Shown here in pieces: positions 2,115 to 9,164 of a DNA stretch of 64,000 nucleotides. Within the stretch, counting starts at the first letter, position 1, and each line of letters opens with the position of its first letter. Under the pieces are notes generated by a model. It had not been told where the DNA came from and did no database searches. It worked only from the letters and a program-made list of their open reading frames with translations. The DNA is taken from the NCBI RefSeq assembly GCF_003018235.1, contig NZ_CP027437.1; one strand, 5' to 3'. The translations under genes and the position numbers were made by a program. The stretch is from Escherichia coli (lineage in GTDB: Bacteria > Pseudomonadota > Gammaproteobacteria > Enterobacterales > Enterobacteriaceae).

Positions 2115-2286
2115 GTCTCTGCTTTTTGCCGCTTTTGTAATACAGTCTACGTCCGGGTTAGCGCCGCCTGGTGAAAGCATCATTGGATGAAAAATCGGCA
2201 ACAGGCTGGCCCCTGTTTGCTTCGCGATGCGAATAAACTTATTATTTGTGTGCCTGAAAACCCCGATCAGTGAGAGTAGTGTACTC

Positions 2287-4476
2287 ATGTTTGTGGAGCA
2301 TAACCTGATAAAAAATATCAAGATATTCACACTAGCGTTTACGCTCACCGTGGTACTTATTCAGCTATCCCGTTTTATTTCGCCACTTGCCATTATCCAT
2401 TCCAGTTATATCTTTCTGGCGTGGATGCCACTGTGCGTAATGCTGTCAATCTTGTTTATCTTTGGCTGGCGCGGTGTCGTTCCCGTTTTATGCGGGATGT
2501 TTTGCACCAATCTGTGGAACTTTCATCTCTCTTTTTTACAGACCGCGGTCATGCTCGGCAGCCAGACGTTTGTTGTGTTGTGTGCCTGCGCAATATTACG
2601 CTGGCAGCTGGGGACGCGTTGGCGTTATGGATTGACCAGCCGATATGTCTGGCAACGTCTTTTCTGGCTTGGTTTGGTGACGCCGATCGGCATCAAATGC
2701 AGCATGTATCTTGTGGGGAGCTTTTTTGATTTCCCGCTAAAGATATCCACCTTTTTCGGCGATGCGGATGCCATTTTCACAGTCGTTGATTTACTAAGCC
2801 TTTTCACCGCTGTGCTGATTTACAACATGCTTTTCTACTATCTCACTCGCATGATTGTAAGTCCCCACTTTGCGCAGATATTGTGGCGCAGGGATATCGC
2901 TCCGTCGTTGAGCAAAGAGAAACGCGCATTTACCTTAAGCTGGCTGGCAGCTCTTAGCGTGCTGCTACTTCTGATGTGCACACCGTATGAGAATGACTTT
3001 ATTGCCGGTTACCTGGTACCTGTTTTCTTCATTATCTTTACCCTCGGTGTCGGTAAGCTTCGCTATCCGTTTTTAAATCTCACCTGGGCTGTTTCAACGC
3101 TTTGCCTTCTGAATTACAACCAGAACTTTTTGCAAGGGGTACTAACCGAATATTCGCTGGCATTTATTCTCGCGGTGCTGATTTCCTTTAGCGTTTGCCT
3201 GCTCTATATGGTGCGCATTTATCATCGCAGTGAATGGCTTAATCGCCGCTGGCATTTGCAGGCGCTGACCGATCCGTTAACGCTCCTACCCAACTTTCGT
3301 GCGTTGGAGCAAGCGCCGGAGCAAGAGGCGGGCAAGAGTTTTTGCTGCCTGCGCATTGATAATCTTGAGTTTATGAGTCGTCATTACGGCTTAATGATGC
3401 GCGTTCACTGTATCCGCTCAATTTACCGTACGCTGCTGCCGTTGATGCAGGAAAACGAAAAGTTGTATCAATTGCCGGGTAGTGAACTGCTGTTAGTGCT
3501 GAGTGGACCGGAAACGGAAGGGCGACTCCAGCATATGGTTAACATCCTGAATAGTCGGCAAATTCACTGGAACAATACCGGGCTGGATATGGGCTATGGT
3601 GCTGCCTGGGGGCGTTTTGATGGAAATCAGGAAACCCTGCAACCCTTGTTGGGGCAGTTAAGCTGGCTGGCGGAGCAATCCTGCGCACATCACCATGTGC
3701 TGGCGCTGGATAGCAGAGAGGAGATGGTTTCCGGGCAGACCACTAAACAGGTGCTATTGCTGAATACCATTCGCACGGCGTTAGATCAGGGTGATTTGCT
3801 GCTCTACGCCCAGCCAATTCGCAACAAAGAGGGTGAAGGTTATGATGAGATCCTCGCGCGACTGAAATATGACGGTGGCATTATGACCCCGGATAAGTTT
3901 CTGCCCCTTATTGCTCAGTTTAACCTTAGCGCGCGTTTTGATTTGCAAGTGCTGGAATCCCTGTTGAAGTGGCTGGCAACACATCCTTGCGACAAAAAAG
4001 GCCCGCGCTTTTCAGTCAATTTAATGCCGCTCACGCTGCTGCAAAAGAATATTGCCGGGCGGATTATTCGTCTGTTTAAGCGTTATAACATCTCCCCGCA
4101 GGCGGTCATTCTTGAGATCACCGAGGAGCAGGCGTTTTCTAACGCAGAAAGCAGCATGTACAACATCGAGCAACTGCATAAGTTTGGTTTCCGGATTGCG
4201 ATTGATGACTTTGGCACCGGTTATGCCAACTACGAACGGTTAAAGCGTTTGCAGGCTGATATCATCAAAATTGATGGCGTCTTTGTGAAAGATATCGTCA
4301 CGAATACGCTGGATGCGATGATTGTGAGATCAATTACCGATCTGGCGAAAGCGAAGTCATTGAGTGTGGTCGCGGAGTTTGTCGAGACGCAACAGCAGCA
4401 GGCGCTATTGCATAAGCTCGGGGTGCAATATCTGCAAGGGTATTTGATTGGTCGCCCGCAGCCATTAGCTGATTAA
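2287..4476 (+). CDS. pdeA: membrane-anchored c-di-GMP phosphodiesterase (EAL domain), about 729 aa; ORF opens at 2227, internal Met start chosen
   Basis: ORF track; multi-TM N-terminus plus C-terminal EAL-type region; K-12 synteny (yfeA) between the tRNA-Ala genes and nupC. Confidence 0.75.
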   Translation: MFVEHNLIKNIKIFTLAFTLTVVLIQLSRFISPLAIIHSSYIFLAWMPLCVMLSILFIFGWRGVVPVLCGMFCTNLWNFHLSFLQTAVMLGSQTFVVLCACAILRWQLGTRWRYGLTSRYVWQRLFWLGLVTPIGIKCSMYLVGSFFDFPLKISTFFGDADAIFTVVDLLSLFTAVLIYNMLFYYLTRMIVSPHFAQILWRRDIAPSLSKEKRAFTLSWLAALSVLLLLMCTPYENDFIAGYLVPVFFIIFTLGVGKLRYPFLNLTWAVSTLCLLNYNQNFLQGVLTEYSLAFILAVLISFSVCLLYMVRIYHRSEWLNRRWHLQALTDPLTLLPNFRALEQAPEQEAGKSFCCLRIDNLEFMSRHYGLMMRVHCIRSIYRTLLPLMQENEKLYQLPGSELLLVLSGPETEGRLQHMVNILNSRQIHWNNTGLDMGYGAAWGRFDGNQETLQPLLGQLSWLAEQSCAHHHVLALDSREEMVSGQTTKQVLLLNTIRTALDQGDLLLYAQPIRNKEGEGYDEILARLKYDGGIMTPDKFLPLIAQFNLSARFDLQVLESLLKWLATHPCDKKGPRFSVNLMPLTLLQKNIAGRIIRLFKRYNISPQAVILEITEEQAFSNAESSMYNIEQLHKFGFRIAIDDFGTGYANYERLKRLQADIIKIDGVFVKDIVTNTLDAMIVRSITDLAKAKSLSVVAEFVETQQQQALLHKLGVQYLQGYLIGRPQPLAD

Positions 4477-4483
4477 CAGGCGT

Positions 4484-4516
4484 AAAAAAGCCGGGGAATG
4501 ATCCCCGGCTTTTTTA
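4484..4516. terminator. bidirectional Rho-independent terminator between convergent pdeA and nupC
   Basis: stem agccgggga / tccccggct flanked by A-run and T-run. Confidence 0.7.
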
Positions 4517-4525
4517 TGTATGGTT

Positions 4526-5728
4526 TTACAGCACCAGTGCTGCGATTGACGCAGACAGCACACTCACCAGGGTAGAGCCGTAAACCAGTTTCAGACCGAA
4601 GCGAGAAACCACGTTACCTTGCTCTTCATTCAGGCCTTTAACTGCACCGGCGATAATCCCGATTGAAGAGAAGTTAGCGAAGGAAACCAGGAACACAGAG
4701 ATGATGCCTTCAGCACGCGGAGAGAGTGTAGAGGCAATTTTCTGCAGATCCATCATCGCAACGAACTCGTTGGAAACCAGTTTGGTCGCCATGATACTGC
4801 CCACTTGCAGTGCTTCACTGGAAGGAACACCCATCACCCATGCAATCGGATAGAAGATGTAGCCCAGGATGCCCTGGAAGGAGATGCTGTAGCCAAACCA
4901 GCCAGTAACGGTGGCAAACAGTGCGTTCAGCGCGGCGATCAGGGCGATAAAGCCGATCAGCATCGCGGCAACGATAATGGCAACTTTGAAACCTGCCAGA
5001 ATGTATTCACCCAGCATTTCGAAGAAGCTCTGACCTTCGTGCAGGTTGGACATCTGGATGTTTTCTTCACTGGCATCAACACGGTAAGGGTTGATCAGCG
5101 ACAGCACGATAAAGGTGCTGAACATGTTCAGTACCAGTGCCGCAACGACGTATTTCGGTTCCAGCATGGTCATGTATGCACCAACGATGGACATCGACAC
5201 GGTGGACATCGCCGTGGCAGCCATGGTGTACATGCGATTGCGGGAGATTTTGCCGAGGATATCTTTATAGGCAATAAAGTTTTCAGACTGACCCAGAATC
5301 AGGGAGCTGACGGCGTTAAAGGATTCCAGTTTGCCCATGCCGTTGACTTTGGAGAGCAGGAAACCAATTGCGCGGATAATCACCGGCAACACGCGAATGT
5401 GCTGGAGAATACCGATCAGTGCAGAGATAAAGACGATTGGGCACAGCACTTTCAGGAAGAAGAATGCCAGGCCTTGATCATTCATGCTACCAAAGACGAA
5501 GTTAGTCCCTTCGTTGGCAAATCCGAGCAGTTTTTCAAACATTTCGGAGAAGCCTTTCACGAAGCCTAAACCAACGTCGGAGTTCAGGAAGAACCACGCC
5601 AGTAACACTTCGATAACAAGCAGTTGAATAACATAACGGATACGAATTTTTTTGCGGTCGCTGCTTACCAGCAGTGCGAGAATCGCAACAACGGCAAGTG
5701 CCAGTACAAAATGAAGGACGCGGTCCAT
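4526..5728 (-). CDS. nupC: nucleoside:H+ symporter, 400 aa (ORF extends to 5767; start taken at MDRVLHF)
   Basis: ORF track; recalled NupC sequence; synteny. Confidence 0.85.
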
Positions 5729-5994
5729 ATTTGCTCCAAATATGAGGCAGGTTAAATTTCCGTGCACATTCTATGTAACATGGTTAAGGAAAACGAGATC
5801 TGACACACACTATAATGACGTCCTGTGACAAGCTTCAAAAATAGTGAGCTGTCATACATTTCTGCTATGTTGTGTATGGAAGCTGAAAGTTATGTAAATG
5901 TGCTAACATTAAACATAACCATAACATTCAAGTCATCAATCTTTTCGTAGTCATAATCCTGGTCTATCAGAGAAATCACCACAACCCATTTAAA

Positions 5995-6016
5995 TGAATT
6001 TGATAATCATTATCGT
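5995..6016. promoter_or_regulatory. Fur box candidate in the mntH promoter (tgaatttGATAATCATTATCg)
   Basis: GATAATCATTATC matches the Fur consensus core; position about 50 bp upstream of the mntH start. Confidence 0.6.
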
Positions 6017-6029
6017 TTGGCATAGCATG

Positions 6030-6051
6030 AAACATAGCAAAGGCTATGTTT
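6030..6051. promoter_or_regulatory. MntR operator candidate: palindrome AAACATAGC-AAAG-GCTATGTTT
   Basis: near-perfect inverted repeat immediately upstream of the mntH start codon. Confidence 0.6.
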
Positions 6052-6054
6052 TAG

Positions 6055-7302
<1,248 letters not shown>

Positions 7303-7330
7303 TTCAACTGGCGTCGTACCAGGCATCACT

Positions 7331-8702
<1,372 letters not shown>

Positions 8703-8723
8703 GTGCTCCATTGACGGACGCGT

Positions 8724-9050
8724 TTAATGGCGATGCCCATGTCCGCGGCCTTTTCCGCGATGATCGTCACGATCGCGCCAGCCTTCACGATAGCCACGCT
8801 CATACGCTTTACGCTTATCCCAGCCACGATGGTAGCCATTATCATGACGCCACCAGCGGTTCTTACGCCATTCATAATTGCGATGCCAGTAGTCACGGTC
8901 GCGCCAGTGACCACCGTCCCAGTAATTACCGTAATGATCGCGATCGCCAATTTGTAATTTGATTGATGGCAGTAGGGTGATTTCACCTGCGTTTGCCGCA
9001 AGCGGGGTAAATGCCATCAGGGCGGCCGCCAGAAACAGTGACCTGAACAT
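8724..9050 (-). CDS. ypeC: secreted low-complexity protein rich in His/Arg/Trp/Asp/Tyr (DUF2502-like), 108 aa
   Basis: ORF track; signal-peptide-like N-terminus [21 protein letters not shown]; synteny. Confidence 0.8.
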
Positions 9051-9164
9051 TGTTATTCTCCTTCACGATCGAAGCCGTCAGCGGCCTGTTAACGCAATAT
9101 TACGGGGAGGTAAAGCCCCGTATCATCGCCATAACTCTTAAATCATAAAGGAGAGCATTTTTTG

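Follow-up and report, generated by a model that had tools for sequence, protein, structure and literature searches.

Our results make it very probable that positions 5953–6063 of the window (the whole stretch of 64,000 nucleotides that was analysed) form the composite regulatory region of Escherichia coli mntH. The finding is correct but ordinary, because the motifs are the well-known iron and manganese repressor sites of mntH; the control region of this gene, with Fur and MntR (plus OxyR), has already been described. The dual-repression promoter for iron and manganese is intact in this strain in its textbook form and adds nothing new for regulation. A rare base of the strain makes the Fur box more consensus-like. 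A preliminary description of the same DNA had regarded the adjacent Fur and MntR motifs as an expected feature that confirms the identity of the locus, and the nupC–mntH gene order and the known promoter architecture agree with this. It had recognised these two motifs rightly, but overlooked an OxyR-like site and the open reading frame ypeD.

The window is part of an E. coli chromosome. According to the list of open reading frames and the RefSeq annotation of identical DNA, the gene order is pdeA-nupC-mntH-ypeC:

2227–4476, plus strand: pdeA, from the open reading frame list and the RefSeq annotation.
4526–5728, minus strand: nupC, divergent, with its annotated ATG at 5728, from the open reading frame list and the RefSeq annotation.
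6064–7302, plus strand: mntH, with its ATG at 6064, a Nramp-family Mn2+/H+ symporter of 412 amino acids, from the open reading frame list and RefSeq.
8724–9050, minus strand: ypeC, from the open reading frame list and the RefSeq annotation.

The nupC–mntH intergenic region measures 335 bp. The 401 bases from 5700 to 6100 are found with at least 90% identity in 5,424 of 5,426 complete E. coli genomes, all but one of which reach at least 95%, and the matches invariably lie between nupC and mntH.

Some features of the neighbourhood concern insertion sequences. In the window pdeA directly adjoins nupC (4477–4525), whereas K-12 and strain WP8-S18-ESBL-07 have IS186/IS421 between these genes. Between mntH and ypeC (about 7303–8723) lies an insertion sequence of the IS621 family (IS110, RNA-guided), whose open reading frame occupies 7493–8473 on the minus strand. 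The element is flanked by REP-derived naRNA4 matches at 7281–7362 and 8667–8746. These were the sole matches in an Rfam scan of 5600–9100, which found no RNA family at the promoter. The insertion site is empty in K-12, O157 and WP8-S18-ESBL-07, and among complete E. coli genomes the element's best full-length matches reach about 97% identity.

Our comparison across species is based on MntH orthologues (at least 89% identity) and their upstream DNA from 80 species of Enterobacteriaceae; locus L091 was left out because its upstream DNA was too short. A promoter scan of the mntH strand found a single sigma-70-like promoter, TTGATA-17-TAGCAT. The elements in and around this promoter are as follows:

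5953–5989, plus strand: OxyR-like site of the type ATAG-N7-CTAT-N7-ATAG-N7-CTAT, from a consensus match, with its centre at about −64 from the predicted start.
5994–6083, plus strand: ypeD (b4819 in K-12), 29 amino acids, from the RefSeq annotation and the translation of the window.
5996–6020, no strand: putative Fur operator of two overlapping 19-bp sites (5996–6014 and 6002–6020) with an offset of 6 bp, from a position weight matrix (PWM) and conservation.
6000–6005, plus strand: −35 hexamer TTGATA of the proximal mntH promoter, from the promoter scan; present in 80 of 80 species.
6012, plus strand: polymorphic base in the Fur core, A in the window and C in K-12, from alignments.
6023–6028, plus strand: −10 hexamer TAGCAT, from the promoter scan; present in 53 of 80 species, the others having single-base variants.
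6030–6051, no strand: putative MntR operator, the perfect 9-4-9 palindrome AAACATAGC AAAG GCTATGTTT, from an exact match, a PWM and conservation.
6053–6057, plus strand: Shine-Dalgarno sequence AGAGG of mntH, read from the sequence, 6 nt 5′ of the ATG.

The assignment of these sites to regulators is a prediction based on our scans together with reviews and later studies.

From the spacing of the hexamers, transcription of mntH is predicted to start at about 6034–6036, which leaves a leader of about 29 nt. Of the 80 species, 53 have a promoter spacer of 16 nt and 27 one of 17 nt, and the GAGG of the Shine-Dalgarno sequence is conserved in the species set. The proximal start stays a prediction: it is absent from the table of Kim et al. 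2012 (PMC3415461 Table S1), where the only starts on the mntH strand are upstream and weak, at window positions 5878 (11 reads) and 5917 (5 reads). These lie 186 and 147 nt 5′ of the mntH ATG. Finding upstream starts only is consistent with repression of the proximal promoter in those growth conditions, although it is not proof of it. The start at 5917 is preceded by an extended −10 element, TGCTAACAT (5901–5909). We also noticed that AAATGA (5991–5996), between the OxyR-like site and the −35 hexamer, is at least 90% conserved in the 80 species. The Fur matrix does not explain this conservation, as a third site at 5990–6008 scores only 3.2 bits. AAATGA may mark the beginning of a short upstream open reading frame, or represent an UP-like element or the extension of a footprint.

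The Fur-like motif of the preliminary description is present: GATAATCATTATC occurs as an exact match at 6002–6014, 50–62 nt upstream of the mntH ATG, and this is its sole exact copy in the window. It is a near-perfect 6-1-6 inverted repeat, and the opposite strand matches at the same place with one mismatch. Simple arithmetic predicts about 0.002 occurrences of an exact 13-mer in 128 kb, both strands counted. When up to two mismatches are allowed, six copies are found in the window against 1.8 expected, a marginal enrichment that is unimpressive alone.

A PWM scan for both regulators, which had been proposed as a check, gave the mntH sites as the window's best in each case. The Fur matrix was symmetrised and built from the best sites of nine other Fur-regulated regions of K-12 (fepA-fes, fepD-entS, fepB-entC, fhuA, cirA, fecA, fecI, exbB and fhuF). 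Its top two scores in the 64-kb window are 18.4 bits at 5996–6014 and 15.6 bits at 6002–6020, followed by a third best of 15.1 bits. The maxima of 30 random 64-kb sequences had a mean of 13.7 bits and a highest value of 17.7, and 18.4 was never reached. With leave-one-out scoring the training sites range from 11.2 to 20.0 bits, and the 18.4 bits of mntH fall inside this range. The site agrees with a 19-bp GATAATGATAATCATTATC-type consensus at 16 of 19 positions, and TGATAATCATTATCG agrees with the 7-1-7 Fur motif at 13 of 14. In their information-theory model, Chen et al. 2007 place a cluster of two Fur sites at mntH, 25 bp long, with 19.9 bits and at −56 from the ATG (PMC2189734). This published centre corresponds to window position 6008 and agrees with the two-site, 25-bp cluster found here, which spans about −39 to −15 of the predicted start and takes in the −35 hexamer together with most of the spacer.

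The second motif, AAACATAGC-N4-GCTATGTTT, which had been called MntR-like, is an exact, unique and perfect palindrome at 6030–6051. It begins 2 nt past the −10 hexamer, extends from about −5 to +17 of the predicted start, which it covers, and lies 13–34 nt upstream of the mntH ATG. Both motifs are therefore within about 70 bp of the start codon, as had been claimed, and the span originally given for the pair (5995–6051) agrees with the extended Fur site (5996–6014) plus the MntR palindrome. The full palindrome, AAACATAGCAAAGGCTATGTTT, has no other match in the window even at three mismatches, where 0.04 would be expected, and apart from the mntH site the window holds no palindrome match above 13 of 18 positions. 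In the 13 kb of K-12 sequence examined, related palindromes with 14–15 of 18 positions are found only upstream of dps, at the 5′ end of rybA/mntS and, twice, upstream of mntP. A matrix built from these four K-12 sites, with mntH left out, gives 26.6 bits at 6030–6051; the next score is 14.0 and the random maximum 19.6. These scores are partly circular, because the training sites were found by their similarity to the mntH palindrome. The training sites do sit at genes assigned to the MntR regulon in the literature (PMC8632737). The mntR gene itself lies outside the window, its K-12 copy being at 853 kb. A literature search with the letters of AAACATAGC and GCTATGTTT returned unrelated primers only.

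Across the 80 species the two operators are almost invariant, whereas the flanks drift. The information content per column is 1.81 bits over 6000–6014 and 1.92 over 6030–6051, compared with 0.75–0.78 in the flanks. The rows of three of the 80 species were mis-anchored, at a second TTGATAA within the −10 region, which can only lower the apparent conservation of the Fur/−35 block. TTGATAATCATT is nearly invariant, and the Fur score has a median of 17.7 bits with a minimum of 9.9 in a few Citrobacter. The MntR site scores 25.3–28.3 bits in every species, its spacing to the −10 hexamer is constant, and in 79 of 80 species it starts 31–35 nt before the ATG. Among six divergent E. coli alleles there is variation in the spacer (6015–6022) and none in either operator. 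The one altered spacing among the 80 species is seen in Trabulsiella odontotermitis TbOT1.10, where the MntR box is at −50 from the ATG; the shift is caused by a 16-nt tandem duplication of the Shine-Dalgarno region (ATATTTCAGAGGCAGA twice).

Conservation of the −35 hexamer would be expected even without Fur, and one could argue that the Fur-like 13-mer is only a chance AT-rich match over this hexamer with no Fur function. That TTGATA would be kept as a −35 element in either case fits such an argument, as does the marginal enrichment of the 13-mer in the window once two mismatches are allowed. We nevertheless consider a chance match extremely unlikely and rejected it on PWM rank and conservation: the two overlapping sites, 6 bp apart, hold the top two scores in 64 kb, and the spacer bases ATCATTCTC, which are dispensable for the promoter, are kept in nearly all 80 species. 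In addition, fur-dependent regulation (PMC4676285) and a model site at the same position (PMC2189734) have both been published. Conservation of the whole block could also have a different cause, namely that the DNA is kept for encoding the YpeD protein (5994–6083) and not for the operators. The frame covers both operators and overlaps mntH codons 1–7; RefSeq annotates ypeD in the block, and 72 of 80 species have its ATG. The gene was called from Ribo-RET/Ribo-Api profiling, which indicates initiation at the ypeD ATG, and Salmonella and Citrobacter have been reported to contain homologues (bioRxiv 10.1101/2021.07.02.450978). However, the frame is not kept. There is a stop at codon 9 in the E. 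coli alleles AJ5, Nord8 and EC69 and in several other Escherichia sequences, and across genera the open reading frame has a length of 0, 8, 11, 23, 24, 25, 29, 31 or 43 amino acids, which varies because the promoter spacer is either 16 or 17 nt. Third positions of codons are conserved to the same degree as the other two, conservation ends at the operator edges and not at the edges of the open reading frame, and ypeD has no NCBIfam match. Translation of the frame and operator function can also coexist. With broken frames and no codon periodicity, we rejected coding constraint as the cause, and think it highly improbable. Because of the premature stops and the lengths of 0–43 amino acids, the apparent conservation of ypeD is that of operator DNA and not of a protein. 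A small open reading frame that lies on operator DNA without protein-level conservation is a reason for caution in small-ORF catalogues.

A third alternative concerns the palindrome, which could be read as a hairpin of the mntH leader RNA that controls translation or termination, rather than as a DNA site bound by a protein. The segment 6024–6066 does fold well, with −14 kcal/mol and a z-score of −4.8, the hairpin ends 2 nt before the Shine-Dalgarno sequence, and transcripts from 5878 and 5917 would include the palindrome. Yet the predicted start (about 6035) falls inside the left arm, and therefore the main transcript cannot form the stem. The pair 6033–6048 is C·A in 59 of 80 species and the pair 6031–6050 is A·C in 13; compensatory changes are absent, because the left arm is unchanged where the right arm varies. 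The four loop nucleotides do not vary, as expected of a protein contact but unusual in a hairpin loop. Rfam has no match to the hairpin, and the same motif is found upstream of the promoters at mntP and dps. Without compensatory changes we rejected the hairpin, which is very unlikely to explain the palindrome; a pair of Fur and MntR operators on the mntH promoter is the reading that we adopt.

The base at 6012 deserves separate attention. The perfect 13-mer is real in the window but represents a rare allele, as K-12 reads GATAATCATTCTC. This is also the Fur core of O157 and of four other E. coli alleles, and the window differs from it by A for C at 6012. Only 11 of 5,183 E. coli genomes matching the 66-nt segment 5986–6051 have it in exactly the form of the window. 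Within the set of 80 sequences the base is C in 74 and A in the window and two subspecies of Salmonella enterica (arizonae and diarizonae), the remaining three rows being the mis-anchored ones. The A raises the two Fur scores from 17.3 to 18.4 bits (+1.2) and from 13.1 to 15.6 bits (+2.5), and makes the core the perfect GATAATCATTATC, nearer to the Fur consensus than that of K-12. Fur repression as described in the literature concerns the K-12 allele with C at 6012 (PMC4676285; PMC8632737). A6012 might be a naturally occurring allele with tighter Fur repression.

Directly upstream, and abutting the promoter, is the likely OxyR site, which ends at 5989, the −35 hexamer starting at 6000. It matches 13 of 20 consensus positions, and no more than 10 places in the window do as well or better. 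Across the 80 species, conservation of the core CTATCAGAGAAATCA is about 80%, and the site as a whole is partly conserved. An OxyR site separate from those of MntR and Fur has been reported for the mntH promoter (PMC8632737), and 5953–5989 is the likely candidate for it.

How would these elements work together? Protein binding and metal dependence we infer or take from the literature, in which E. coli mntH is repressed by Fur and MntR (PMC8632737; PMC4676285) and MntR repression of mntH in particular is reported (PMC8632737; PMC4191405). The sigma-70 promoter TTGATA-17-TAGCAT, with its start near 6035, would bear two independent repressor operators. Dimers of Fe2+-Fur on 5996–6020 would mask the −35 hexamer together with most of the spacer, and RNA polymerase would thus be denied access to the promoter. 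Mn2+-MntR on 6030–6051 would sit just past the −10 hexamer, across the start, where it would block open-complex formation or escape. OxyR at 5953–5989 probably gives activation by peroxide. Manganese import would then be on only at low iron and manganese, or with peroxide. Dual repression by iron and manganese, as originally proposed, is supported by the placement of both sites on the predicted promoter and by the literature (PMC8632737; PMC4676285; PMC2189734).

The intergenic region had also been said to serve the divergent nupC. That the region is shared is correct, but the operators are more than 230 bp from the proximal nupC start, which is at window position 5761, 33 nt before the nupC ATG (PMC3415461 Table S1). 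At this distance, the operators probably do not regulate the proximal nupC promoter. A second start on the nupC strand lies at 6076 (minus), inside mntH codon 5, with a 348-nt leader and 13 reads (PMC3415461 Table S1). Its transcript would cross the mntH promoter and both operators in antisense, and on the minus strand this start is preceded by a TTGCGC-16-TACTCT element. In the half of the region nearer to nupC (5847–5930) there are imperfect inverted repeats, 5884–5901 / 5913–5930 and 5847–5858 / 5873–5884, which may be candidate CRP/CytR-type sites for nupC.

The upstream starts on the mntH strand allow a further layer of control to be imagined. Long leaders from the weak promoters at 5878 and 5917 would read through the Fur and MntR sites, where bound repressors may act as roadblocks. 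On such a leader the −14 kcal/mol hairpin beside the Shine-Dalgarno sequence may form, and ypeD may be translated across the palindrome and coupled to the translation of mntH. Since the ypeD ATG is upstream of the −35 hexamer, its translation needs these upstream transcripts. Roadblocks, hairpin and coupling on long leaders and, separately, tighter Fur repression through A6012 make up an extension of the composite-operator reading that we regard as unlikely.

The region can finally be compared with mntH promoters and operators that are already known. The K-12 comparison that had been suggested turned out largely as anticipated: the locus and gene order are the same, the −35 and −10 hexamers, the MntR palindrome, the Shine-Dalgarno sequence and start codon do not differ, and the Fur cluster occupies an unchanged place, but its core is one base off, with C at 6012 in K-12 against A in the window. 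Three further substitutions are found elsewhere in the intergenic region. K-12 has IS186 beside nupC and no IS621 after mntH, and the window has the reverse. For enterobacterial mntH in general, an OxyR activator site, Fur over the −35 hexamer and MntR between the −10 hexamer and the ribosome site have been reviewed (PMC8632737). Salmonella enterica subsp. arizonae and diarizonae have TTGATAATCATTATC and a palindrome identical to that of the window, whereas the spacer and flanks of Salmonella enterica differ and the open reading frame in the ypeD frame has 25 amino acids. For Salmonella enterica mntH, the 2002 work of Kehres and colleagues reportedly gave an OxyR site, Fur over the −35 hexamer and an inverted repeat between the −10 hexamer and the ribosome site. 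The window has the same order of OxyR, Fur and inverted repeat.

Compared with classical Fur boxes (fhuF, fepD-entS, fepB-entC, fecI, cirA and others), the mntH site has the same 19-bp 9-1-9 / 7-1-7 architecture. The target, however, is a manganese importer and not an iron importer, and unlike the boxes of iron uptake genes it shares its promoter with a second metal-sensing repressor. The MntR operators of mntH, mntS/rybA, mntP (two sites) and dps have in common the core ATAGC-N4-GCTAT with A/T-rich flanks. Only that of mntH is a perfect palindrome, the mntS/rybA, mntP and dps sites being imperfect. At mntP the sites are about 400 nt upstream of the ATG, and there MntR is reported to activate rather than repress.
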